From contig WJMJ01000086.1 of assembly GCA_014728035.1 (NCBI GenBank), forward strand, positions 1 to 12,904: DNA of 12,904 bases. The letters run 5' to 3'. The translations under genes were made by a program, and so were the position numbers. Under the pieces are notes generated by a model that saw only the letters and a program-made list of their open reading frames with translations, had not been told where the DNA came from and did not search any database. This stretch comes from Promethearchaeota archaeon (GTDB lineage: Archaea > Asgardarchaeota > Thorarchaeia > Thorarchaeales > Thorarchaeaceae). Positions within the stretch are counted from its first letter, which is position 1. Every line of letters starts with the position of its first letter. Shown here one piece after another: positions 1 through 12,904 of the stretch.

Positions 1-3
1 AGA

Positions 4-31
4 CCCCCCCCCCCTTGGTTTCCTATGGAAC
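4..31 (-). promoter_or_regulatory. ORB (origin recognition box) with G-string, left copy
   Basis: Reverse complement reads GTTCCATAGGAAACCAAGGGGGGGGGGG, matching the archaeal ORB pattern GTTCCA-N3-GAAA(C/T)-N3-G-string bound by Orc1/Cdc6. Confidence 0.8.
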
Positions 32-206
32 TCTATTTTGACCGTTGCACAAAAAAATAAGATGATCAAAAAAATACTTTGTTTGATACCTCATAAAAAT
101 ACATATGAATTGAAATGGGAATAATTTGTATTTAATATTTACCCTAGATTTTTTGAACAGGGCGTTTATTAATCGAACGCTTTTTGTTGTTACCTTTTGC
201 GTCTCC

Positions 207-233
207 GTTCCATGCGAAATGATGGGGGGGGGG
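207..233 (+). promoter_or_regulatory. ORB (origin recognition box) with G-string, right copy
   Basis: GTTCCATGCGAAATGATGGGGGGGGGG aligns without gaps to the inverted left copy (shared GTTCCAT, GAAA and G10). Confidence 0.8.
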
Positions 234-248
234 TAATCCAACGACACA

Positions 249-265
249 TTTAAATTAATTTAATA
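249..265 (+). promoter_or_regulatory. candidate archaeal TATA box(es) for the first operon
   Basis: TTTAAA (249-254) and TTTAATA (259-265) lie 22-38 nt upstream of ATG 287. Confidence 0.4.
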
Positions 266-286
266 TCATTGAATAGTAGTGATACT

Positions 287-451
287 ATGACTTGTAAATG
301 TCCTAAACTTGGATTCACTGAAGATGGAAATGTAGTAGAATGTATAGAAACGGAATGTCGTTTTTGGATTGAAAAATATCAAGATTGTTCTATCAGGATA
401 CAGGCCGTCGCTCTAGCAAAGATTGCGAAGATGGATTCTGAAGAATGGTGA
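287..451 (+). CDS. small Cys-rich, putative Zn-binding protein (54 aa)
   Basis: MTCKCPKL...ECIETECRFW...DCSI has five Cys. ATG 287 follows a GTGAT SD-like motif, and the stop overlaps the next gene's SD. Confidence 0.7.
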   Translation: MTCKCPKLGFTEDGNVVECIETECRFWIEKYQDCSIRIQAVALAKIAKMDSEEW

Positions 452-455
452 TCTA

Positions 456-2042
456 ATGAAGCGCCATATTCCTATCATACTTATGTTGTGCATGATGATG
501 CCTCTATCTGTGAGTGCGGATCTGTCAATTGAAGAAGCAATACGTGTAGAGATAGTTCCTCTCACTAATAGGCCAGTACAATATAATTTTCAATCAATCA
601 GAAACCCCAATATTATAAGATCTAGATCTAACAGTGGTATAACTAGATTCCGTGCAAATCAAGATATCATAAAGATCATTTCAAGCGTGGATGGCATGAT
701 TACTTCTTATTCTACATTACTTGTACATCATGATTTTGTAGAGAGTGATGTTTTAAGACACAATGTAAGTTTTATGCAGAAGGTTGTTCCAGAACTAGAA
801 ATATGTGGTTTCAACTATAAGGCAATCATAGCTGTACATGGTTGTTTTGGACACAATGATTTTAAGATGGGTGAACTATATCGAAGTTCTCCCTTATCAT
901 GTATAAGGTTTCCAATAAACGAATCGATATACTCTGCTTTCGATGCTGATTACCGTTTTGAAACAACTGAATATGTATATTATATAACTAAACTTGATCC
1001 AGTTCGTAATGTCACTATTCAGGAGTTGCAAATTGACCCATTTATACCAAGTGACCCGTTACTTCTCAATATGTCTGTTGGATTCGTAGAGTCGAGTAGT
1101 ATTCCATCATCCCTCTTTGAGAATAAGTTTCAACAATTAACAGACTCTTTTACTTTTCAGAATATGACTCTTAACATATCATCTACTTTCCCGATAGTAC
1201 ACAAATTTCATGCTGATGATTTCTTTGTTGAAGAACCTGCTATTCCAATGATTGGGGAATGGATGCTTGATGGGGAACCACTTAACTATGATTATGTATA
1301 TTTAGAACCACACCCCGTTGATGGAGGTGGTGGTATAGATATCCCCGATCCAATAGATGAAGTAATTTTTATTCCAGTAGTGATTCTGTTCCCCTGCTTG
1401 TTCATTTCCAGTTTGTTATATTATTTATATTCGATATATAACAGAAAAGAAAAGACAATATCGTTATCCAATTGTGATAGTTTACAAGAATATGTTGAAC
1501 ACCAAAAGAGAAAACTTAGAATAAAGAAGATCAAACAGACTGAAGAAGACATAGAAAAAGCCGAGTCGAAAATAAGAGAAAAATGCGAAATATGGAATCG
1601 GTCATATCAAGAAATGAAGACATTATACAATTCAATTATGGGGCTTGCTGAGGTCTTACGAACAAGAGGTATGATTGTGGAGTATGTGCAGGTATCAGCA
1701 GGTATAGAACTCATAAAGGATGTTGATATCTTATCTTTCTATAGTCTTGTAAAGAGACATGATTTGATTGTAGATTATTATGAGTCTGAGACAGATCAGA
1801 AAAAACACATTCATTATTGTGCCAAGTTTCAAAGTGACTTTTACAGGACCCAGGTAGATTATGATATTGTTACTGATGCAGCATATGTTGTATCCATGAA
1901 TAAAACACGTACAGATCTACTAAAGCAGCTTGATGAATTACAAGGAGGAAAATCAAATGACCTTGCATTAGGCTTTATTATTGTATTTACTATGTATATC
2001 ATTATTGAAATTGGTTTTTGGATACAGGGGGCTTTGACATGA
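456..2042 (+). CDS. hypothetical membrane protein: signal peptide, ~280-aa ectodomain, TM, coiled-coil region, C-terminal TM
   Basis: Long ORF; start moved to ATG 456 behind GGTGA (447-451). Signal peptide MKRHIPIILMLCMMMPLSVSA, G/P-rich linker, TM VIFIPVVILFPCLFISSLLYYLY, K/E/Q-rich helical stretch, terminal TM LALGFIIVFTMYIIIEIGFWI. Confidence 0.85.
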   Translation: MKRHIPIILMLCMMMPLSVSADLSIEEAIRVEIVPLTNRPVQYNFQSIRNPNIIRSRSNSGITRFRANQDIIKIISSVDGMITSYSTLLVHHDFVESDVLRHNVSFMQKVVPELEICGFNYKAIIAVHGCFGHNDFKMGELYRSSPLSCIRFPINESIYSAFDADYRFETTEYVYYITKLDPVRNVTIQELQIDPFIPSDPLLLNMSVGFVESSSIPSSLFENKFQQLTDSFTFQNMTLNISSTFPIVHKFHADDFFVEEPAIPMIGEWMLDGEPLNYDYVYLEPHPVDGGGGIDIPDPIDEVIFIPVVILFPCLFISSLLYYLYSIYNRKEKTISLSNCDSLQEYVEHQKRKLRIKKIKQTEEDIEKAESKIREKCEIWNRSYQEMKTLYNSIMGLAEVLRTRGMIVEYVQVSAGIELIKDVDILSFYSLVKRHDLIVDYYESETDQKKHIHYCAKFQSDFYRTQVDYDIVTDAAYVVSMNKTRTDLLKQLDELQGGKSNDLALGFIIVFTMYIIIEIGFWIQGALT

Positions 2043-2329
2043 GTATCAACGTATGTATAAATAATCATACTGAGAAGCATGATAACTTGCCTTATCAGAT
2101 AGGGAGAAATTCATCTATACCTGTCTATCTTGATCGGGTACGAGATTTCCTGAAAGGCAAGTATGTGGTAAGAACAAGTGTAGTAGCAAGATATCTTGAC
2201 ATATCTCCCTCACTTGCGGGGCACGTCATGTTAATGCACCCTAATTATGAGGATTGGACATGCGGAAGGAGAAGCAAATGGATAAGAAAGATTGCGGACA
2301 TAAATAGGCCCCATTGGGAATATGCCTAG
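2039..2329 (+). CDS. small basic protein, possible winged-helix/HTH DNA-binding protein
   Basis: ATGA overlap with the upstream stop. VRTSVVARYLDISPSLAGHVM is HTH-like and is followed by a W-containing wing-like segment. Confidence 0.6.
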   Translation: MSINVCINNHTEKHDNLPYQIGRNSSIPVYLDRVRDFLKGKYVVRTSVVARYLDISPSLAGHVMLMHPNYEDWTCGRRSKWIRKIADINRPHWEYA

Positions 2330-2338
2330 TCTCCTATA

Positions 2339-2361
2339 GCGATTATGATTTCCATTATCGC
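2339..2361. repeat. imperfect inverted repeat (operator or hairpin)
   Basis: GCGATTATG-ATTTC-CATTATCGC, 8 of 9 pairs, immediately before the GGGTGAT SD of the 2374 gene. Confidence 0.55.
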
Positions 2362-2373
2362 GGGTGATATACT

Positions 2374-2580
2374 ATGTTAGAACGAATTAAACAATGGTAT
2401 CTTCAGAGAAAAACGAGATGTCATGTTGTTTTGAAGATCGAAGATGAAAGTAAAGGTGTTACCTTTGAATACTATCTAGGATATATTCATCCAAGTGACA
2501 CAAAGAGAAAGGTTGCAGAAATAGATGAGGCAATAGATGATCTAGAAAATCTTGGATTCAAGAGAAAGAGTAGGCGATAG
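2374..2580 (+). CDS. hypothetical protein (68 aa)
   Basis: Strong GGGTGAT SD, fills the gap between neighbours, basic termini. Confidence 0.75.
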   Translation: MLERIKQWYLQRKTRCHVVLKIEDESKGVTFEYYLGYIHPSDTKRKVAEIDEAIDDLENLGFKRKSRR

Positions 2581-2583
2581 ACC

Positions 2584-3294
2584 ATGAACAAGAAAACAAG
2601 CTTTATCGTTCTCTGTATTGTGGTCATGGTGGGAATACCTATCATCAATCTTGGTCTATACTATGATATGGATACAACTCCACGAGAAACAGAGGTAATA
2701 ATGTGGTCACAAAGTATAGATTGCAATAGAACAGTTTTGGAATTGTATCTTAGTTATTCTTTGAATGAAACAATAATTCCAGATCACCATCAGGATTTCA
2801 GATATACTATATCGTATTATCAGATCTATGCAGAGGCAAATATTCTCAATATCACTCTATCAAATAACATTGAAGTAGGAGACTACTATTATGATACTGT
2901 TAATTATTATATCAAGCTCGGCTTCATCAACATAACCCATGTTGTATTTCAGACTCATGTAGATGGGCCACGAACAGATATCATTCCAATAAACAATACT
3001 GAATGGGCTGTTACCCGTTCATATACATGCCAGAACAACGACTCTAAAATCAAGATCAGTTGTGCTTCTATAGGAGTCTATAATTATACGATAATACAAA
3101 ATGCATTTCCCCAGCTTGAAAATACTACGTTTTCATCACCTCCCTTTGTTACCACCAATGCGTATAATTATGTACAGACATATAATGTTGAGAGTTTCAA
3201 GACCTTGACCACTGTCTATTGCATGGTTAGCGCTGGGGTTCTATGGATCGTTCTGTATCATGGAATAAAGGAGGACCTCAAACATGAAGAATGA
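2584..3294 (+). CDS. double-anchored membrane glycoprotein (N- and C-terminal TM)
   Basis: N-terminal hydrophobic segment, eight N-x-S/T sequons (NRT, NET, NIT x2, NNT, NDS, NYT, NTT) and a C-terminal TM VYCMVSAGVLWIVLY. Confidence 0.8.
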   Translation: MNKKTSFIVLCIVVMVGIPIINLGLYYDMDTTPRETEVIMWSQSIDCNRTVLELYLSYSLNETIIPDHHQDFRYTISYYQIYAEANILNITLSNNIEVGDYYYDTVNYYIKLGFINITHVVFQTHVDGPRTDIIPINNTEWAVTRSYTCQNNDSKIKISCASIGVYNYTIIQNAFPQLENTTFSSPPFVTTNAYNYVQTYNVESFKTLTTVYCMVSAGVLWIVLYHGIKEDLKHEE

Positions 3295-3883
3295 GAAGGG
3301 AGAGGACACAACACAGAGTATGTTGTTATTTCTACTTGATGTGAAGGACAGGATATTAGAAGAACTAAGAGAGATAGTAGAGTCTCTGAAAGATAGTTCA
3401 TGGAGAGTACAGACCGATGCAAAGTCACAACTTACTACTATCATTGATTGTATCATGTTCATTGATGGCACGATACAGGAAAGCACATTGTTTAGAGGGA
3501 TAGTATATTCGCGAGTGACCCCCATCATAACAGCCTTGATACAGACCCGTAAAGGGTATCCGTACTTGACTCTATCAGATGAGCATATGCAGTATCTAGG
3601 ATATAAACGGGTAGATGATATTGAACATGATGGTACATATTGGGTCCACAAGGACACTGGAGACATCATAGATCATAGCGTGATATTCTCGTACGTAACT
3701 AACATTCAGGACTTTGATATAGATGATTGGCCAAAAGGGGAATGGGGCAGCGAAGGTTTTGGATTAGGAATGTTCGGTGGGCGTGGATCACGCATAATAA
3801 CAGGAACTGGGTTTGAATTATCAGAGACCAAACCTGAAGATGATAAGTTAGTGTTGCCCCCTGAACCAGAACACACAGAGTGA
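3284..3883 (+). CDS. hypothetical acidic cytoplasmic protein (199 aa)
   Basis: GGAGG SD at 3270-3274 and overlap with the upstream gene end. No recognised domain. Confidence 0.75.
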   Translation: MKNEKGEDTTQSMLLFLLDVKDRILEELREIVESLKDSSWRVQTDAKSQLTTIIDCIMFIDGTIQESTLFRGIVYSRVTPIITALIQTRKGYPYLTLSDEHMQYLGYKRVDDIEHDGTYWVHKDTGDIIDHSVIFSYVTNIQDFDIDDWPKGEWGSEGFGLGMFGGRGSRIITGTGFELSETKPEDDKLVLPPEPEHTE

Positions 3884-3900
3884 TCAGTGCTATCTAAACC

Positions 3901-3916
3901 TGCCCAGCGCTGGGCA
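3901..3916 (+). terminator. perfect 16-bp GC-rich palindrome; possible terminator or protein-binding site closing the first operon
   Basis: TGCCCAGCGCTGGGCA begins 18 nt after the 3883 stop and is followed by only a short T run (CCTTTA). Confidence 0.5.
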
Positions 3917-3936
3917 CCTTTACCCAATAACTAATC

Positions 3937-4040
3937 GAAACATTAATACGAAATGTAATACGTAATATATACATGAAATACCGTATTATGTACTTGGTCA
4001 CTACTTTTAGATGTTACCTATTACGTGATACGATACGGAG
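3937..4040 (+). promoter_or_regulatory. putative promoter/regulatory region of the structural operon
   Basis: AT-rich, with TAATACG direct repeats (3944, 3956), TAATATATA (3963-3971), dyad AATAC-C-GTATT (3977-3987), CTATTACGTG (4018-4027) and GATACGATACG. Confidence 0.55.
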
Positions 4041-4049
4041 TTATTGAAC

Positions 4050-5162
4050 ATGGCGAAGAACGATTCACTAAAAACCATAGTCATGGTGTTGGTTATTATC
4101 ATTTTATTGGTAGTTTCAGCATTTGCAGTGGTTATGGCATATCAGGCCGGAATCTTCGGATTTATGGGTCTGACGCCTGGAGACGTTCAAGATGATGCTG
4201 GAGATGATGAGACACCTGTTGAGATAGAGGGTAAGACCCTTGCTTATCTCAAAACTTGGGTTGTTAGTGAAGATGATACCACTGATGATCTTGAGTCCGA
4301 AGATGTCTATATTTGGTATGATTGGAACGGAGACGGGCAAATGCAACGGTCCGCGTTTGCGGGCTTCACGGAAGAAGACGGACTAATTGGCGGAGAGATT
4401 GAACACACATCCACTGGTTCCAGTGATGGGTACTTTACCTCTCGTAATCCTTATCCTGTTGGCGAGTCTATCTGGGTCTTTGTAGATCCTGGATCAGATG
4501 ACGGGTATCAGAAGTCATATCAAAAAGTGATCATGTATGGGTCTCCAGACTCTAACAATCAGATCACCACAGCTAACGTTCTATGCAGAGCAACAGATGA
4601 TGCTATCACATTCTCTGGCCTCATTAGAAACACAGCTATTGACGATGGTACTGACTACAACTACACAGCTAACGGTCAGACTGGAGCTTTTGAGATAAGG
4701 GCAACCTTAGCAACATCAAAGGCTGGTTTCGACTCTCAGGTTGCAGATAGTCCTACCTACAACCCATCTAACGAGTACTGGGTTCACTGGGGAACTGGTA
4801 AGAAATACGCTCCTACCTTCCTTGGCGGATACTGTACTAACCAGGATGCTGTTGACCTGGGTATTGACGCTGGCGACTGGGACTTCTATTATCAGGGTGC
4901 AACAAACACATATTTTGCACGATACCTGATGGACTTTGATGACTACTCTGAGGACTCTGACACGATCTATTACAGCGCATATGATGCTGCTCCAACTTGG
5001 GTATATTCTACCTCAGTTGATATTTCTGCTGCTGGTGCTGTTGTATATGTCGGAATTTTCCAAGATGTAGAATGGTCCGATTTCAACCGAGGAACTTGGA
5101 ATCCCACAACTGATGCCAACATTATTGGTACGTGTGGTGCTGACTGGGACTGGGTAGCCTGA
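4050..5162 (+). CDS. N-terminally anchored, highly acidic beta-rich surface protein; candidate major structural/envelope protein
   Basis: 370 aa from ATG 4050 with GGAG upstream. Long N-terminal hydrophobic helix and D/T/G/Y-rich ectodomain. First gene after the promoter region and followed by a strong hairpin. Confidence 0.8.
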   Translation: MAKNDSLKTIVMVLVIIILLVVSAFAVVMAYQAGIFGFMGLTPGDVQDDAGDDETPVEIEGKTLAYLKTWVVSEDDTTDDLESEDVYIWYDWNGDGQMQRSAFAGFTEEDGLIGGEIEHTSTGSSDGYFTSRNPYPVGESIWVFVDPGSDDGYQKSYQKVIMYGSPDSNNQITTANVLCRATDDAITFSGLIRNTAIDDGTDYNYTANGQTGAFEIRATLATSKAGFDSQVADSPTYNPSNEYWVHWGTGKKYAPTFLGGYCTNQDAVDLGIDAGDWDFYYQGATNTYFARYLMDFDDYSEDSDTIYYSAYDAAPTWVYSTSVDISAAGAVVYVGIFQDVEWSDFNRGTWNPTTDANIIGTCGADWDWVA

Positions 5163-5177
5163 TCTCAGTATAATCTA

Positions 5178-5202
5178 TAGGGATACGGTCTTCGTATCCC
5201 TA
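5178..5202 (+). terminator. perfect 10-bp stem-loop after the 4050 gene (attenuator or mRNA stabiliser)
   Basis: TAGGGATACG-GTCTT-CGTATCCCTA with no adjacent T tract. Confidence 0.6.
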
Positions 5203-5223: not shown

Positions 5224-6552
5224 ATGAAGCAAAGTCCACAAGTAGTATCGACTATCATTTTTATCATTGGAATTGTCTTGATAGGGTCGGGTATAGTTCT
5301 GTCCGTATCTCCGCAGATCGGTGATATTGGAGTAACGGTTAAAAATGACATACAGGCTGACATGAGGATCTATGATGTGTCCTCTTCTGATGTGACTGGA
5401 AGGGATTCTCCATATCTGATTGATGATGCTTTTGACCGTATTTTTACAGATTTGTACGTACAAGTAGTTCCCTCGGCTGTTGATGGTATAGCATCATTCA
5501 AACTTTCAATCATCAACGAAAATAGCGAAAGGGTATATTATCAAAGCATGGATCAGGTCGGAAGTTATTACGAATCCTATGTTGATGTTGATGGATATCC
5601 TACTGGTCAATACACGATAAAGGCAACAGGCGTATCAGAGACATACAATGTGATCTATGAGGAGACGAACCCTAATCATGCATGGTATGAGGGTCAGATA
5701 GCACGAGGAGCCGACGAAGCAAGCTTACGAGAATTGGTCATGGCAGGTGCCTATGGCGGAGTGTGGCCCATTCCAGAGACCATTACAGTTACAGAACAAC
5801 GAGAAGAGGTAAGTATCTACGATCCGTCACCACGACTGGTATCTATAAAGAACCCGTGGCAAAAACCAGTATTCACTCTTGGAATATCACAGGCGGACTC
5901 TTCAAGTCCTGTATATTTTTCATACACCCTGACTGAGGGAGTAGTAACTTCTATGACCTTGGTTATTCGAGCTGAAGATGGAACAAGAGTAGCTGAGTCT
6001 AAGGATCCTGATGCATTCGTGTTTAATGAGAATCAGGGGCAGGCAGATGGATATTATACCGCAACACTATACGTTGTAGGTGCCTCTGGATGGACCGGAG
6101 CGCAACGTTCTGTAGGATTCACCATAGACAATCCAGAAGATATAGCTGGTGAAGTCACGATATTCATATCCAATAACGAGAGATGGGAACAGATAAGCGA
6201 TGGAGACATCATATCTGGTTCTGTGCTTATCCGTGTTGAGATCACATCTGGAGAACCTGTTGTCTGTACTGCATATTTTGACGGTCCAACCCAACGAGTC
6301 TTTGATATGGAATTTGACGGTACATACTGGTATGTTATCTTGGACACAAACATCTTTGTGAACGGTGATTATTCTATCTATGTGGAGGCTACAAGAGCAG
6401 AAGATAATGCTCTATGCAGACTTTCAGTATTCGATACTGGGGTAGAGGGTTCAACTGGACAGATACAGATCTTTGGTGCTATACTTCTTGTCATGGGTCT
6501 GTTCTTTGTTGGATACTGGGCCTTTATCACCATGATGCCAAGACGGAGATGA
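5224..6552 (+). CDS. membrane-anchored surface protein with Ig-like domains and C-terminal TM + PRRR tail
   Basis: GGTGA SD and N-terminal TM. Ig-like signatures (GQYTIKATG, DGYYTATLYV, GDIISGSVLIRVEI...LDTNIFVNGDYSIYVEA). C-terminus IFGAILLVMGLFFVGYWAFITMMPRRR. Confidence 0.85.
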   Translation: MKQSPQVVSTIIFIIGIVLIGSGIVLSVSPQIGDIGVTVKNDIQADMRIYDVSSSDVTGRDSPYLIDDAFDRIFTDLYVQVVPSAVDGIASFKLSIINENSERVYYQSMDQVGSYYESYVDVDGYPTGQYTIKATGVSETYNVIYEETNPNHAWYEGQIARGADEASLRELVMAGAYGGVWPIPETITVTEQREEVSIYDPSPRLVSIKNPWQKPVFTLGISQADSSSPVYFSYTLTEGVVTSMTLVIRAEDGTRVAESKDPDAFVFNENQGQADGYYTATLYVVGASGWTGAQRSVGFTIDNPEDIAGEVTIFISNNERWEQISDGDIISGSVLIRVEITSGEPVVCTAYFDGPTQRVFDMEFDGTYWYVILDTNIFVNGDYSIYVEATRAEDNALCRLSVFDTGVEGSTGQIQIFGAILLVMGLFFVGYWAFITMMPRRR

Positions 6553-6556
6553 TTCT

Positions 6557-7351
6557 ATGAGCTCGGATCTTCGTTCACGACTGTTTACATCTGATGACCC
6601 AGGGTTCAATTTCGGCCTTGTTGCCATAACCCTTGTTGTCATAACAATAATATTTCCCGTATACGTAGATATCGGTGTAGAAGATCCGAGAATAGACTCC
6701 TTTTGGAAAATGTTCATATCAGGGCTTGTAATGACTTTCATTCTATCATTATCACTTGCGCTATTGAAGATACGTAAAAGCAAGAGACAAAACGCAAAGG
6801 ATCTTGTCATATTCGACTTTACTAATCCAATCAAACAGATTTACGTTATTATCCTAGGTATTGTTGGAGGGGTGTTTATCGTAACAGCTAACATTCTGGC
6901 AACAACTTCAAGCAATCTATTATTATCTACTACAAATGCAACTGGATTCTATCTCGGTCTCCTAGCTGGTGTTGCAGAAGAGTTGTTCTTTAGAGGCTTC
7001 TTGCAGACCTTTTTTGAGCTGCTTCTTCAGGGTACAGTATTCGCTAGGTTCTTTGCTATCATTCCGACCGCTATAGTCTTTGCGCTATTTCATGCCTTTA
7101 CTCCATCTGGTCTTGAGTTTGGAACCCTATTGATATTGTTCATTATAGGAGTAGGACTTGGGATCCTTCAGGCAGTGGTAAACGACATAGGGGTTTCCAT
7201 GCTTGCCCATATCTTCAACAATCTTATAGCTACACTTGGAACCGCAACGGCACTATTCGTCATAGACCCTGTGGTCCTCATCATAGGGGTGGTCCTTGCA
7301 GTGTTCTTCTTCATGTTGTCATACATATTCATTCCTCGGAGGAGGAGATAA
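6557..7351 (+). CDS. CPBP family (Abi/Rce1-like, type II CAAX) intramembrane glutamic endopeptidase
   Basis: Polytopic membrane protein with all three family motifs in order: EELFFRG (EExxxR), FALFH (FxxxH) and AHIFNN (HxxxN). Ends in TM + PRRRR. Confidence 0.92.
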   Translation: MSSDLRSRLFTSDDPGFNFGLVAITLVVITIIFPVYVDIGVEDPRIDSFWKMFISGLVMTFILSLSLALLKIRKSKRQNAKDLVIFDFTNPIKQIYVIILGIVGGVFIVTANILATTSSNLLLSTTNATGFYLGLLAGVAEELFFRGFLQTFFELLLQGTVFARFFAIIPTAIVFALFHAFTPSGLEFGTLLILFIIGVGLGILQAVVNDIGVSMLAHIFNNLIATLGTATALFVIDPVVLIIGVVLAVFFFMLSYIFIPRRRR

Positions 7352-7352
7352 T

Positions 7353-7580
7353 TTGCCAAGAAAGAGTAATACTAAAACATATCTCATAACTGGGATCTTC
7401 GTGTTCGTCCTCAGCATAATGGCAGGAATTATTGTTAGTCTTATACTTGCTATTCCTGTTGCTGGGCTTGTGATATTTGGGCTTCCTGCAATGATAATCC
7501 TGCCTATTGCGTTAGTCCTCCTGTTCTTCTTCCTCGGTTGGATATTTATCACAATCGGGGGCATGCGGAGGCGTGGTTGA
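7353..7580 (+). CDS. small hydrophobic two-TM protein (75 aa, TTG start)
   Basis: GGAGGAG SD directly upstream of TTG 7353. Basic N-terminus, ~55 uncharged residues and a GMRRRG tail. TGATG coupling to the next gene. Confidence 0.75.
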   Translation: MPRKSNTKTYLITGIFVFVLSIMAGIIVSLILAIPVAGLVIFGLPAMIILPIALVLLFFFLGWIFITIGGMRRRG

Positions 7581-8593
7581 TGGGTAGACGGAGAGGAAAC
7601 CAACAACTAGTTGTCGCAATACTGGTCATAGCACTTGTTGCCTCAGTAGGGGTCATAGCAATAGTGGGGATCAACTCGTTACAGGAGGGAAACATCCTTG
7701 TAACTGGATATGACGGTATCATTGGAGAGATCACCCATATAGACAGAAACGACTATAACGCAGAGTTCTCTACAAACGGACAGAACGCCCAGATAGACCC
7801 CATCTATGAGGGCGGACTTTCTAAAGACCCCACAGGTCTCAAGATCGAAGTTGACAGCGCAATAGATGTTGTAGAGGTTCTAAAGACCTACGAACCGATC
7901 TATGACGAGTCTAACAATCCAGATGGTGTTACCAAGGACATAAAGGAGTGGCAGTTCAAAAAATACTACTGTGAGATGGGCGTGACCATTGAGACCTTTG
8001 GTACTGGTATTGACCCAATAAAGAATATCGTGTTCACAGTCCAGATCTACGAGAACGATTTTTCATTGTTCACTGATGCAGATGATAACTATGTATCCCT
8101 CATAGAGGTCTACAATGCAGAGGCAGTACCGACCCCTGAAGCTGGTTCTCTTGAAGTGTTGCCTGCCTCTCAGAGCGCACCATATGTATTAGACCCAATA
8201 GATACAGATCCCGTTCCAGCATGGTTAGAAGATAGTGGGTTCAATGAGGCCACCTTTTCACAGAACCAGGCGGTAGAGATCGAGATAAAGGTAGTAGAGG
8301 CATATCCTGATGTGGTACCTGTTTTTGGTTGGAGAACCGACCCACAGGTAAGTTATGATATCGGGTTAGATGTTCTTGTTGCCGGATACTGGGTTGAGAC
8401 CGTGGACAGAGACTATACTCCTCCCGAACCTGACAAACCGCGGGACCCATTTGGTGATCTGTTGGGCGGTATCTCTGACTTTCTCAACGATATCAGCGCA
8501 GGCGTGATAATTCCTGTGGTCATAGCTATCGTAGTGGTTGTTCTTGTTGTCTTTATCATCTACATCGGTATCATGGGAAGGCGTAAGCGATGA
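7580..8593 (+). CDS. double-anchored acidic membrane protein (N-terminal signal/TM, C-terminal TM + GRRKR tail)
   Basis: Start at ATG 7580 (TGATG overlap, GGAGG SD). MGRRRG + hydrophobic helix, beta-rich ectodomain, Pro-rich linker, amphipathic PFGDLLGGISDFLNDI, then TM and MGRRKR. Confidence 0.85.
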   Translation: MGRRRGNQQLVVAILVIALVASVGVIAIVGINSLQEGNILVTGYDGIIGEITHIDRNDYNAEFSTNGQNAQIDPIYEGGLSKDPTGLKIEVDSAIDVVEVLKTYEPIYDESNNPDGVTKDIKEWQFKKYYCEMGVTIETFGTGIDPIKNIVFTVQIYENDFSLFTDADDNYVSLIEVYNAEAVPTPEAGSLEVLPASQSAPYVLDPIDTDPVPAWLEDSGFNEATFSQNQAVEIEIKVVEAYPDVVPVFGWRTDPQVSYDIGLDVLVAGYWVETVDRDYTPPEPDKPRDPFGDLLGGISDFLNDISAGVIIPVVIAIVVVVLVVFIIYIGIMGRRKR

Positions 8594-8620: not shown

Positions 8621-8773
8621 GTAACACTAGTACAATAGAAGTGATCATATGAGATATGAATACGCGATTTTCGATATGGTTGAGGTGATATGGTGCGACT
8701 CTTGAAGATGATATTATCCTTCCTTGTTTCTACTCTTTGCATTGCTGGTTCTTCTACTGTACGGGGTGAGGCT

Positions 8774-11700
8774 GTGAAGCGAATCATTCCTATCCTTCTG
8801 CTTGTGTTGATACTGTGTTCTCCGATGCCTTCACAAAATACTCTTGATTCAGTACTCCAACCTGATGTGAAGTTCTCAACGAGTGCGGATGGCGATACGA
8901 GTCCCGATTCGTTGTCAATATTTTCTGAAACTAGCGATGATGATACTATGACGGTTATTGATTCGTTTCACAACACAACTATAGATTTCGCTGATGCTGA
9001 TGATATTGTGGCTGGCAGTGCTGTGGCTGATTATGAAGAAACGTTTGTGGTAGATGGTGTTGGTGGTGGTGTTGATGATACCTCTGGCGGACCTGTCAAT
9101 TATTCGCTCATCTGGAATACTCCAAGTGGAATGAATCTTGATGGATTCACGATTGCATTGTACATCAAGAGTTATGGTTCTGAAACTTTCGATGTTGCAA
9201 GCGATACTACACTATGGAATAGTGATACTGGCGTGTTCGATGACTATGGGAATATTCCTGAAAACTCGTACGATTGGGTCAATTATACCACCTATGATTC
9301 ATCGCATTGGAATTCGTCATATGTGACCATGCAACTCTATGCAGAAGATGCAGATAACATTCTTGTTTCACTGCTGGTTGATTATGCAGAGATTACGTGG
9401 TACTACACCACAGCGCATATATCAGAGCCATTTTCAGATGTATCAGATTGGAACATTGAACCCTATTTCGGCGGATTAACGATAACCACCGACGGTGATG
9501 TAGCGACATTTGTTTCAGAGGGTGATGGAAATTGGAATGCATACGCATGGAACACTACCGGAGAATCGCTTGAAGGTAAATATATTGAATTTCGTGCGCG
9601 TTGCAATGACTCTAGCAACGATAATTGGGGCGTGGTGTTGAAGGACGCTGATGGGTATCAGGGTACAACCATTGATGCTGAGTACTACTATTTTTCTGAC
9701 ACGGACTGGCACACACACAAGTACTACATCGAACACGATGAAGTAGTAGAATCGATAGGTTTCATCCTACGTGGCACACCAAATCCGTTCCAGATCGAGA
9801 TTGACTACTTGAACATTCTAGATCCCGATGAAGCTGGATTTCAACACGACGGGAGCACAACGGGAGGAGTTTCTGAATGGCACGGAGAAGATTGGAGTGT
9901 GTATTATCCACTAGATGAAAATACTGGAACTAGGGCGTATGATAGCTCAGATAATAGTAATGATGCGGATTTAACAGGTTCTTCAACATGGGTTTCTGGT
10001 AAAATTGGAACGTCTGCGGTGCGGTTATACGCTGGTGGAGATGAGATAAGATTTGATAATGATGTAGCATTTACAGATAATCAAGCACATACAGTTTCAT
10101 GTTGGATGAAATGGGATGTGGCATCACCTTCATCTTTTGTGATTCCGATGGGGACTGGTTCAACAACAGGAAATTGGTATTTCCGACAAGGTGGGGATTG
10201 GCGCGTTGCGTTTAGACCGCAAGGGGAGAGCAGTACCATTCTTTCTGATGTTACTTCTGAAGATTGGTTTGATGGTAACTGGTTCCATTTTTCAGCTACG
10301 GTAACAACAGATCATTATGTGACTGTATATATTGACGGGGCTCAAGTTGGCTCGACTACTGAAGTAACAAATTCTCATATTGTATATTCAAACTTTGGGC
10401 AGGGATATTCAGGTACAAATTACGGCTGGAATGGCACAATAGATGAGCCTATGCTTTTTTCCCGTGTACTTGATGCTGACGAGATTCAAGCACTATATAA
10501 TTACGGTTCTGGTTCGGTTTCAAGCGATGGTGATGAACTTTCGTTAGCTGCTGGTTCAGGCGGTTCTACGTTCAGTATCGCAACAGATACAACCGCAACG
10601 CATGCCTCTTTAGACACTTCTTATTATCCGTTTCTCTCAGTAGATTTCAATGACGGAGATAGTTCTGATTATGTCATGTTGGAGGGATACAACGGCGCTG
10701 GTGGCGTTTCAACGATTCTCTCGAATCAGACAGTAGGAACAAGTGAATTGTATTGTGCCCCCGCAGCTGTGCTTGACGAATATGAAAGTATCAGGATATA
10801 CGTTAACCCCTCAGCTACGGTTAGAATGAGATGGGTAAAGGCCTTCTCCATCGCGAACTTCACTCTATCTCAAGGGAATTGTGAAAGCACCGACTACCTA
10901 TATGTGCAAAACTCCGTATTGTATTGTTCGGGACTACAAAACACGAATGAATACATTCGACTAGACCATGACCCATCTGTTTCTGTATCAGACACCTACA
11001 GTGTCTACAACATCACTACTGATGCGACTGACGATTCTGCTGAGTTTTATTTCACTATGTACGCAGGTTCATGGGGTACAGCATCAGACAATTATAGAGG
11101 CCCTACTGATTCTGGAAATATCACAGATTTCCGACTTCAGTTTCAAGGGAATCCTTCAGCTGCTTCTACTAGGTACATTTCGGTTGTTAGTTTCATAGAG
11201 GACAGCACCGCGCCTTCGGTTGTTAGATCCTTTGCCAATCCCCCAGAACCAGAAGATGATGAGACCGTTACGTTAAGTGCAGTGATCACGGACACCCTAG
11301 AGGTCTACAAGGTCTACTTTGATGCCATAGTCTCACCTAGCGGATTCTCTGACACTGCGTACTACGCAACCGAACAGTCAGACAATCTCTGGACCTATTC
11401 GTTCTCAGAAATGACGAATGGATATTATTGTTTCAAAATAGTTGCCAGTGACGGTGCGAACGAGAACAGTCTCACAGAATATGCCTATGTGTCCATGACA
11501 GTCAGAGAGAGTTCAATCACGATCCAAGATATTTCCTTCTTCGGTGTCGGTGAAGACTTCACCATGATGACCTATTCCTTCAGTATCAACAAGGACTGTA
11601 CCTATGTTATCAATGAGGCGTCAGACAACAACCCCGCCTCTGATACCCATAGTGGTTCTGTGAGCGCAGGAAGGGTCAATCTCGCATGGGATAAACTCAC

Positions 11701-12904
11701 CACAACAGATTCCCTAGTCAATTTCACAGTCACATTCACGAACGGAACCCTCACGGAGACCGTAGATGGGCAGTATCAAGTCGCACAGACAACTTTGTCC
11801 ATATCAGAGAGGATGTTGCAACTATCAGAGGACTATGTTACCCTATCCGGTCAATGCAACAAGGATAGTGTGTCGTGGACACTGTACCTAGATGGAAGTT
11901 CTACGGACTCAGGAACCGTTAATACTGGATCGTTCCTCATAGACTGGACTAGAACCAGTTCTACCAGTCCGTCACAGGTGAATTATTCGGTTAAATTCAC
12001 CGACTCGATAACTACAGTCTGGATCAATAATACCTATGATGAGTACAACGCTGAGAGTTTTGATATTATTGCGTTCCACACAGACACAGCCGGACAGTAT
12101 GTATCTGTATATGTTGATACTACATGGGAAAACGCAACGGTGTATCTGTATCAAGATGATGATCTTAAGACAAGTGGTGCAGAAGGAACTACACTGATAT
12201 ATGCAAAGTCAACAAGCGCAGGATATTACAATGTCAGTGTCCTTGTTGATGGTGGCGACTCTGATAAATGGATAAACATCAGTTACCAAGTAGCTGCGGA
12301 AGATTCCCTTATCATCGAGTCTATAGAGTTTGACGCAACAGGAGATTTCGTAAGTGCGTTCTGTCATACCAACTGGGGCAACACCACACAGACTCTATAC
12401 GAGAGTACTACAGGCACTCCACCGCCAAATAGTTGGACTGAGAAATCAAGTGAGTCTGAGGGAGAGGCGGTTAGATACGCAAAGAGTACCGCTGTAGGAT
12501 ATTATTATGTGGCTCTAAGAGTGAATGGTGGTGCAGAAGAGGTCTATCTATGGTTCTCCTATACGATTGAGGCAACTACTTTCTCTATCAATTCTCTGTA
12601 TTTCAGAATTGGCAATACGGTGGTATCAGCAGACGTACATACGACTTGGGAAAATGCAACGATATCCCTCTATGAAAATGATGTAGTACAAGACTCAGAG
12701 AATGAGAATACAACCATATCATATACAAAGTCAACAGGTGCTGGAACGTATAACGTTGCCCTTCTTATTGATGCGGGTTCAGAGATTCATTGGATCAATG
12801 ACTCATATACAGTCTCAGTTACGGAGATCACTGTAGAGACTGTGACCCTTTTCGGAGCCTCTGATGATTTTGACTATATGCAGTGGTCCTTTGAACTGAA
12901 CCTA
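8774..12904 (+). CDS. large secreted adhesin-like glycoprotein with LamG domain and tandem Ig-like repeats (3' truncated by window)
   Basis: Manually translated and open for 1377 codons from GTG 8774 (GGGGTGAGG SD) to the window end. Signal peptide MKRIIPILLLVLILCSPMPS. LamG/ConA-like domain at ~9890-10504 (YYPLDENTGTRAYDSS...TVSCW...WFHFSAT...VYIDG...GTIDE...LDADEIQALYN). DSTAP-initiated Ig-like domain from ~11201. Many sequons. Confidence 0.9.
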   Translation, partial: MKRIIPILLLVLILCSPMPSQNTLDSVLQPDVKFSTSADGDTSPDSLSIFSETSDDDTMTVIDSFHNTTIDFADADDIVAGSAVADYEETFVVDGVGGGVDDTSGGPVNYSLIWNTPSGMNLDGFTIALYIKSYGSETFDVASDTTLWNSDTGVFDDYGNIPENSYDWVNYTTYDSSHWNSSYVTMQLYAEDADNILVSLLVDYAEITWYYTTAHISEPFSDVSDWNIEPYFGGLTITTDGDVATFVSEGDGNWNAYAWNTTGESLEGKYIEFRARCNDSSNDNWGVVLKDADGYQGTTIDAEYYYFSDTDWHTHKYYIEHDEVVESIGFILRGTPNPFQIEIDYLNILDPDEAGFQHDGSTTGGVSEWHGEDWSVYYPLDENTGTRAYDSSDNSNDADLTGSSTWVSGKIGTSAVRLYAGGDEIRFDNDVAFTDNQAHTVSCWMKWDVASPSSFVIPMGTGSTTGNWYFRQGGDWRVAFRPQGESSTILSDVTSEDWFDGNWFHFSATVTTDHYVTVYIDGAQVGSTTEVTNSHIVYSNFGQGYSGTNYGWNGTIDEPMLFSRVLDADEIQALYNYGSGSVSSDGDELSLAAGSGGSTFSIATDTTATHASLDTSYYPFLSVDFNDGDSSDYVMLEGYNGAGGVSTILSNQTVGTSELYCAPAAVLDEYESIRIYVNPSATVRMRWVKAFSIANFTLSQGNCESTDYLYVQNSVLYCSGLQNTNEYIRLDHDPSVSVSDTYSVYNITTDATDDSAEFYFTMYAGSWGTASDNYRGPTDSGNITDFRLQFQGNPSAASTRYISVVSFIEDSTAPSVVRSFANPPEPEDDETVTLSAVITDTLEVYKVYFDAIVSPSGFSDTAYYATEQSDNLWTYSFSEMTNGYYCFKIVASDGANENSLTEYAYVSMTVRESSITIQDISFFGVGEDFTMMTYSFSINKDCTYVINEASDNNPASDTHSGSVSAGRVNLAWDKLTTTDSLVNFTVTFTNGTLTETVDGQYQVAQTTLSISERMLQLSEDYVTLSGQCNKDSVSWTLYLDGSSTDSGTVNTGSFLIDWTRTSSTSPSQVNYSVKFTDSITTVWINNTYDEYNAESFDIIAFHTDTAGQYVSVYVDTTWENATVYLYQDDDLKTSGAEGTTLIYAKSTSAGYYNVSVLVDGGDSDKWINISYQVAAEDSLIIESIEFDATGDFVSAFCHTNWGNTTQTLYESTTGTPPPNSWTEKSSESEGEAVRYAKSTAVGYYYVALRVNGGAEEVYLWFSYTIEATTFSINSLYFRIGNTVVSADVHTTWENATISLYENDVVQDSENENTTISYTKSTGAGTYNVALLIDAGSEIHWINDSYTVSVTEITVETVTLFGASDDFDYMQWSFELNL
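11516..12904 (+). repeat. tandem ~80-95-aa Ig-like protein repeats of two types (A-A'-B-B-B-A)
   Basis: B units share T(T/N)W(E/G)N(A/T)T..LY..E(G/N)..Y(A/T)KST..G.Y.V (TW/NW motif at 12122, 12371, 12644). A units: ITIQDISFFGVGEDF..YSFSIN (11516) vs ITVETVTLFGASDDF..WSFELN (12827). Confidence 0.8.

Follow-up and report, generated by a model that had tools for sequence, protein, structure and literature searches.

A CPBP-family intramembrane protease gene and its conserved surface-protein neighbor in a probable Thorarchaeia-associated mobile element

The window analyzed here makes up all of contig C55 (12,904 bp), one of the 173 contigs of a Thorarchaeia metagenome-assembled genome (MAG) of 4.33 Mb (97.9% complete, 8.5% contamination), and carries a gene for a CPBP-family (Rce1-like) intramembrane protease within a run of tightly coupled genes for membrane and surface proteins. 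A first-pass annotation of this DNA had proposed that the protease may be encoded by a mobile element and may process neighboring proteins which end in a transmembrane (TM) helix and a short Arg cluster. Comparison with related contigs, above all a 24.6-kb metagenome contig (L095) and a 36.5-kb IMG/VR contig (L179), and with the MAG itself (labeled G000 where it serves as host genome) indicates that the gene most consistently kept with the CPBP gene encodes a different kind of protein, with its anchor at the N-terminus (the 4050-type protein, after its start coordinate), and that this protein is the most likely functional partner of the protease.

Gene layout of the window

All substantial open reading frames (ORFs) of C55 lie on the forward strand; the genes are compact and mostly without known relatives. 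The features of the right arm, which is one operon of membrane and surface proteins, are as follows.

3884..4049, forward strand: AT-rich intergenic region of 166 nucleotides (nt), as read from the sequence, with GGAG 13 nt 5' of the 4050 ATG
4050..5162, forward strand: 4050-type protein, 370 amino acids (aa), with an N-terminal TM helix, a flexible linker and two beta-sandwich domains, as judged from homologs and an AlphaFold2 model
5178..5202, forward strand: stem-loop with a 10-bp stem (centroid structure -15.3 kcal/mol, z = -2.1) in the 61-nt gap 3' of the 4050 gene
5224..6552, forward strand: membrane protein, 442 aa, whose Ig-like ectodomain lies between an N-terminal hydrophobic segment and a C-terminal TM helix followed by PRRR
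6557..7351, forward strand: CPBP / Rce1-like glutamic intramembrane protease (predicted), 264 aa, with about 8 TM helices and PRRRR after the last helix
7353..7580, forward strand: helical-hairpin membrane protein, 75 aa, ending MRRRG and translationally coupled on both sides
7580..8593, forward strand: membrane protein, 337 aa, whose ectodomain lies between an N-terminal hydrophobic segment and a C-terminal TM helix followed by GRRKR
8690..12904, forward strand: giant surface protein, more than 1405 aa and running off the contig end, with a LamG/concanavalin-like domain (PF13385, E = 3.6e-16)

The region at 3884-4049 probably holds the promoter and the start of the operon. The four genes at 5224-6552, 6557-7351, 7353-7580 and 7580-8593 are spaced by 4, 1 and -1 nt, and their products end in FITMMPRRR, YIFIPRRRR, ITIGGMRRRG and IGIMGRRKR, respectively; the third gene starts with TTG one base past the CPBP stop, and the ATG of the fourth overlaps the preceding stop as TGATG. 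These ORFs and C-termini are exactly those quoted in the first-pass annotation.

The CPBP protease gene and its conserved partner

The CPBP protein belongs to Pfam family PF02517 (Rce1-like) with a score of 51.4 bits (cut-off 22.4; E = 1.4e-13), and the L179 copy matches the same family at 25.4 bits. The motifs that had been recorded as intact EExxxR, FxxxH and HxxxN, namely E141-E142-x3-R146, F175-x3-H179 and H218-x3-N222, are invariant in 15 subfamily members. E141, H179, H218 and N222 are invariant across all 17 element CPBP copies, including those of L095 and L179; in the L179 copy, which is the most divergent, motif 1 has lost its second Glu and its Arg, and the four catalytic residues are kept. 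On these grounds the protein is a genuine member of the glutamic intramembrane proteases and probably active.

Fourteen full-length homologs with 35-43% identity were found when the best 8000 word-sharing candidates were scored, and in scans of genome and metagenome contigs the CPBP alignment picked up, for the most part, generic bacterial CPBPs similar in the catalytic core only, L095 being the sole true relative; neither the single protein nor the alignment had a match in IMG/VR. At E <= 1e-15, the subfamily is absent from the other 86 Thorarchaeia species genomes (1/87 positive). In a phylogenetic tree, the 17 element copies, a group recruited by similarity, stand together and apart from the 11 CPBP paralogs of the host (82/98; 83% of bootstrap trees), which mainly shows that the element did not acquire the gene from the host recently. 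The CPBP gene appears to be an old core gene of the element, and the earlier proposal that it is element-encoded holds.

Six independent contigs carry a CPBP gene together with a 4050-type gene: the window, L095, L179, an NCBI Thorarchaeota contig of 21,570 bp and two JGI contigs of 3,691 and 3,158 bp, the pairing in the NCBI and JGI contigs being deduced from identical contig sizes and adjacent accessions. In L095 the 4050 homolog directly adjoins the CPBP gene, which is followed by genes for an 89-aa TM protein and then for proteins of 439 aa (C-terminus RRKK), 100 aa (C-terminus GRKK), 1070 aa and 479 aa. The order in L179 is giant LamG homolog, 4050 homolog, a 203-aa gene, CPBP and a 414-aa membrane protein, and in the NCBI contig one gene lies between CPBP (MHA2022116) and the 4050 homolog (MHA2022118), as in the window. 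No other protein of the element family is as well conserved as the 4050-type protein, which has 13 homologs at 28-59% identity and was found in only 2/400 Asgard genomes; the G081 contig has a truncated, weak 4050-like match and no other gene in common with C55.

By contrast, the other neighbors of the CPBP gene change from element to element. The 5224 protein, which has a weak Pfam match to Big_13, has eight homologs (26-43% alignment identity), and their alignment contains no usable conserved stretch; its membrane-proximal Ig domain and TM helix are related to the 439-aa protein at L095:9408-10727 (hhalign 85%), a likeness confined to that part. None of the contigs with 5224 homologs equals in size a contig with a CPBP or 4050 homolog, which is uninformative in a library of 50%-identity representatives. 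The 75-aa protein had no informative family match, an Atlas search giving only sub-threshold leads, and has a positional analogue in the 89-aa protein that directly follows CPBP in L095; that it might be a capsid protein like those of spindle-shaped viruses is a speculative reading. A single word-indexed search of 5.8 billion proteins found no homolog of the 7580 protein, and neither this protein nor the 414-aa protein of L179 is related to the 5224 family. The expectation that the genes around the CPBP would stay syntenic was therefore borne out for the 4050 gene and failed for the downstream membrane proteins, which are non-homologous between elements. Since the CPBP-4050 pair is co-conserved while other neighbors change, the 4050-type protein is the likeliest partner or substrate of the protease, a version that the first-pass annotation had allowed for in a caveat, where it named the N-terminal anchor of this protein as a possible substrate.

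The AlphaFold2 model of the 4050 protein (pLDDT, the predicted local distance difference test, 79; predicted template-modeling score 0.72) has a helix at residues 3-32, a low-confidence linker and then all-beta structure. The helix comprises 30 residues, with a basic N-terminus followed by about 22 hydrophobic residues. Structure comparison of the model relates domain 1 (63-182) to transthyretin/CnaB-like folds (Z 9-10), and the whole model resembles Gram-positive pilin shafts; no jelly-roll or HK97 fold was found in it. The protein has no C-terminal TM helix, and the C-terminus of the family is conserved as G-A-D-W-D-W-V-A, without a conserved CAAX-like Cys. A stem-loop follows the 4050-type gene in 3/3 loci (window 5178-5202, z = -2.1; L179:10916-10938, z = -2.6, with a U-run after it; L095:8295-8380, z = -5.1), conserved in place and structure and not in sequence. 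It may act as a partial terminator or as a stabilizer of the mRNA 3' end, and it would fit expression of the first gene, the 4050-type gene, above that of the downstream genes.

Although CPBP proteases are widespread in prokaryotes, few have a known function, and experimental proof of the first sorting role came only in 2025. An N-anchored surface protein of an Asgard element together with a CPBP protease represents a compact enzyme-partner pair that could be tested in a heterologous host. In the mechanism that we propose, for which we infer the protease activity, the identity of the substrate and the cleavage site as well as the viral nature of the element, the CPBP would engage the N-terminal TM helix of the 4050-type protein in the membrane and would cut at or near the outer end of that helix, so that the ectodomain would be released or matured for the surface or particle layer of the element. 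That the CPBP cleaves the 4050-type protein specifically is a tentative proposal, on balance doubtful; the overall picture of an element CPBP, a 4050-type partner, ordinary C-terminal anchors and overlapping ribosome-binding sites (see below) has, in our judgment, an even chance of being right.

Several observations count against this mechanism and its pairing. Where the N-terminal helix of the 4050 family ends, no conserved cleavage motif was found beyond a loose A-[YV]-x-x-G. A 4050 homolog without a CPBP homolog among the 8000 candidates scored occurs on five contigs (18-50 kb), and four contigs have a CPBP and no detected 4050 homolog. The linkage may thus not be universal, and the synteny could merely reflect a shared structural operon.

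Nature of the element and competing roles for the CPBP protein

We interpret C55 as part of a rare mobile element, probably a virus, that is associated with Thorarchaeia and has not been described before. Besides the 4050-type protein, the giant LamG protein at 8690-12904 is conserved in the element family: its counterpart in L179 (L179:686-4813) shares 39% identity with it over 626 aa (E = 9e-108), and two L095 proteins resemble it weakly. The giant protein of L179 has a C-terminal TM helix followed by a long basic cytoplasmic tail.

The best-surviving alternative is that C55 represents a variable chromosomal island, or a mis-binned fragment, that carries adhesins, with the CPBP as its housekeeping envelope protease. 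Much that favors this alternative also weakens the case for a virus: no virus hallmark gene, such as one for a capsid protein or packaging ATPase, was recognized in the window, L095 or L179 by Pfam, PHROG or NCBIfam, no terminase, integrase or replication gene was recognized in the window, and the GC content and tetranucleotide usage of C55 are close to those of the MAG, which has 8.5% contamination. None of the clustered regularly interspaced short palindromic repeat (CRISPR) spacers recovered from the MAG matches C55, and where other MAG contigs share short stretches with C55, the best of these matches lie outside CRISPR arrays. The contig ends are open, and C55 has no terminal direct or inverted repeats. 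On the other side, the only C55 gene with any paralog in the MAG is the CPBP gene, whose match is weak; the genes are packed compactly on one strand and mostly lack known relatives; the family is absent from 398/400 Asgard genomes; and one member of it, L179, is listed in IMG/VR. In addition, the divergent arm of L095 (1-6600, minus strand) encodes a GP88-family protein (PF17338, E = 1.8e-31; PHROG 1392, phage-type), a calcineurin-like phosphoesterase, a weak OB-fold protein and several Cys-rich/Zn-ribbon proteins, and is probably a replication/regulation module. We consider a chromosomal island or mis-binned fragment possible and unlikely.

Searches for known relatives gave little. No window protein had a match in PHROGs; C55 matched none of the deposited genomes of phages and archaeal viruses, either as DNA or through its proteins, the CPBP and 4050 proteins included; and IMG/VR scans with the 5224, 4044, 7538 and giant proteins, each as a single protein, gave no match. 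The analysis flags a Thorarchaeia element family that, the listing of L179 apart, current virus catalogues do not contain. The family resembles the "enigmatic" mobile genetic elements and viruses of Asgard archaea (Medvedeva et al., 10.1101/2021.07.29.453957; PMC13700489) in that those too are Thorarchaeia or Lokiarchaeia contigs, with genes mostly without known relatives, many Zn-finger proteins and no recognizable capsid protein; unlike the window, however, the main text of these papers mentions no CAAX/CPBP protease. L179, at 36.5 kb, differs from the published 58.8-kb Asgard element. To judge by IMG numbering, the two may come from the same metagenome.

A more far-reaching possibility is that the family comprises envelope- or vesicle-type Thorarchaeia viruses without a conventional capsid, in which the element's own CPBP matures the major 4050-type surface protein at its N-terminal anchor; we regard this as rather improbable. 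To our knowledge, a capsid-less Thorarchaeia virus of this kind would, if real, provide the first case in which a glutamic intramembrane protease encoded by a virus takes part in particle morphogenesis.

With regard to the CPBP protein itself, its AlphaFold2 model (pLDDT 78.5) was compared with 48,161 chains. The best structural match is SpdC (6u0o_A; Z 9.2, root-mean-square deviation (rmsd) 5.9, 183 residues aligned), the second is MmRce1 (4cad_C; Z 7.4, rmsd 4.6, 157 aligned) and the third has Z 5.2; SpdC and MmRce1 are the sole two solved CPBP-family folds among these chains. Foldseek gave only a weak result with the model, the fold being resolved only by the full structural aligner, and the CPBP alignment, used as a profile against PDB sequences, had no match. 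The enzyme thus has the same fold and the same E/H/H/N catalytic set as the Rce1 CAAX protease (MmRce1, PDB 4cad); unlike in the Rce1 setting, no C55 neighbor has a C-terminal CAAX box.

The match to SpdC raises the alternative that the CPBP is a non-catalytic membrane scaffold that orients or stabilizes the N-terminal TM helix of the 4050 protein. In the SagB-SpdC complex of Staphylococcus aureus, a CPBP-family protein binds the single TM helix of its partner (PDB 6u0o; 10.1101/2020.05.21.109470). SagB is held through this helix and the putative catalytic residues of SpdC are dispensable; the element likewise pairs a CPBP-fold polytopic protein with a protein that has one TM helix, here N-terminal, and an extracellular domain, and the substitutions in motif 1 of the L179 copy also speak for this alternative. 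The two systems differ in that SagB is a glucosaminidase whereas the putative partner in C55 is a two-domain beta-sandwich protein. Above all, and unlike in the non-catalytic SpdC, the catalytic residues are strictly conserved in the element CPBPs; the invariance of all four in 17/17 copies, even that of L179, points to selection for catalysis and favors proteolysis over pure scaffolding, which we consider improbable.

Bacterial CPBP proteins have also been assigned "Abi" or bacteriocin self-immunity roles, so that the CPBP might be an immunity or exclusion factor that guards the carrier cell or blocks superinfection, functionally unlinked to its neighbors. CPBPs are abundant and functionally diverse, the host alone having 11 others, and the element gene is old and self-contained. 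However, the gene lies inside, and is translationally coupled to, an operon of membrane and surface proteins, and it stays beside a 4050-type gene in divergent elements; in addition, PADLOC defence models gave no match to the CPBP, although the library may not include such proteins. We find an immunity role more improbable still.

Some observations on the remainder of the contig may be added. GC content is 34-36% in the left 3.3 kb of C55 and 42-47% across the remainder. The left part (1-3300) encodes membrane proteins without known relatives at 423-2042 and 2584-3294, as well as small putative DNA-binding or Zn-finger proteins, and no tRNA was found in the window. The window opens with an 11-C run (positions 1-20, AGACCCCCCCCCCCTTGG), possibly an assembly-end artefact. 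The CRISPR-like arrays of the MAG (C36:6330-6543 and C83:8597-8741) are small and broken by contig ends.

C-terminal TM helices, Arg clusters and ribosome-binding sites

The first-pass annotation had taken the TM-plus-Arg endings as candidate sorting signals, with the CPBP as a possible myxosortase-like sortase that would cleave the C-terminal TM helix and Arg cluster of the 5224, 7353 and 7580 proteins for release or re-anchoring during assembly. CPBP-processed signals (MYXO-, JDVT-, Synerg- and CGP-CTERM) consist of a signature motif with an invariant Cys, a TM helix and an Arg cluster (10.1101/2023.06.07.544157; PMC11980579), and the layout at hand is reminiscent of them. As in the myxosortase systems (MrtX/MYXO-CTERM, MrtJ/JDVT-CTERM, MrtS/Synerg-CTERM and archaeal MrtA/CGP-CTERM), an Rce1-like protease gene lies among genes for TM-plus-Arg surface proteins, which flank the CPBP in both the window and L095 and, less markedly, in L179. 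The best NCBIfam matches of the CPBP, though weak, are Mrt-family models.

The part of the tripartite signal that would identify it is missing, however. As that annotation had itself cautioned, no signature motif precedes the TM helix in the C55 proteins, nor was one found in the 5224 homologs. The 7353 and 7580 proteins have no Cys in their last 45 residues, and the one Cys close to the helix of the 5224 protein, 20 residues N-terminal to it, is not conserved in the eight homologs of this protein. LPXTG, PGF-CTERM, PEP-CTERM and GlyGly-CTERM motifs are absent from the last 45 residues of the three proteins, and CTERM domain models (NCBIfam, E <= 0.05) gave no match. The tails, moreover, do not form a homologous domain as those of myxosortase cargo do, and they differ between orthologs: among the 5224 homologs the tail after the helix ranges from 3 to about 20 residues of unrelated sequence, and L179 tails have just one or two basic residues. 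Kinship of the enzyme itself with myxosortases was equally not upheld, as all Mrt models (NCBIfam, NF040914 and equivalogs) scored the CPBP at 19-38 bits against cut-offs of 75-250 (MrtS 37.5 vs 130, MrtJ 33.6 vs 75, Mrt_core 30.2 vs 100, MrtC 24.7 vs 195 and MrtP 19.2 vs 250). While myxosortase systems are lineage-wide and have dozens of cargo proteins, the C55 CPBP resides on a sporadic mobile element.

The endings are, furthermore, common in the host. Among 3,354 long ORFs called across the host MAG, whose C-termini were scored, 239 have a TM helix within about 10 residues of the C-terminus; at least two basic residues follow the terminal helix in 145 (4.3%) and at least three in 85. Assuming independence of genes, four consecutive tail genes would be expected about 0.01 times per genome; host genes for tail-bearing surface proteins, however, cluster likewise (8 on C121, 4 on C34 and 3 consecutive on C99), so that the run in C55 is real and yet not peculiar to the element. 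An ending so widespread in the host proteome is the standard type-I anchor of large surface proteins rather than a mark of the element. The TM-plus-Arg endings are ordinary stop-transfer membrane anchors, in which the basic tail residues would hold the C-terminus in the cytoplasm according to the positive-inside rule. The 11 CPBP genes of the host are not significantly enriched near tail-bearing genes (p = 0.14-0.28), and the Arg-cluster ending is kept across the CPBP subfamily as the end of the last helix of the enzyme itself.

The composition of the C55 tails nevertheless stands out: they contain 13 R and 1 K, while in host tails R accounts for about 49% (binomial p = 7e-4), a significant bias that would suit a sorting signal and for which the operon structure offers another explanation. 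The tail codons are rich in AGG and AGA and spell GGAG or GGAGG 12-15 nt 5' of the next start, and they do so at 7/7 coupled junctions (three in the window, three in L095 and one, the CPBP junction, in L179), compared with 19/142 host tails (Fisher p = 2e-6) and with 4/19 coupled host tails (p = 5e-4). The 3' end of 16S rRNA in the host reads ...GATCACCTCC, which makes GGAGG the expected Shine-Dalgarno (SD) sequence. Long gaps follow the tail between the 7580 and 8690 genes of the window and between the 100-aa and 1070-aa genes of L095, and each of these gaps contains an SD sequence of its own. In a packed operon, AGG and AGA Arg codons would be favored as they double as the GGAG(G) ribosome-binding site of the next coupled gene, and the C55 tails would be Arg-biased because their codons serve this second purpose. 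A point on the other side is that SD-rich tails are not general among coupled host genes (4/19 vs 15/123 for the remainder, p = 0.29); the effect is thus no general host rule, and we treat it as a feature of these compact operons. SD overlap is accordingly best seen as a likely contributing cause of the Arg bias, short of proof.

The TM helix and Arg cluster of the C55 tails, though present, are no clear mark of Mrt cargo, being generic in the host, variable among orthologs, weak in L179 and confounded by SD overlap, and, given in addition that the flanking proteins are non-homologous between elements, cleavage of these C-termini by a myxosortase-like CPBP is very improbable. More generally, in archaea rich in type-I surface proteins, a C-terminal TM helix with a basic cluster and no signature motif does not amount to evidence of a sorting signal, and in packed operons the ribosome-binding site that serves the following gene can shape Arg-rich tails.

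A separate observation concerns the host proteins. In 28 of the 145 host C-termini with a TM helix and basic tail, a [D/N]-P helix cap precedes the first basic residue by 18-26 residues, compared with a background of 4.6%, and the cap often follows a poly-Thr stalk; examples in the host genome (G000) are C34:27239-29722, C121:52991-58042 and C167:28518-34508. The 5224 and 7580 proteins do not have this cap, which might be a weak candidate for a lineage-specific C-terminal signature of Thorarchaeota surface proteins.

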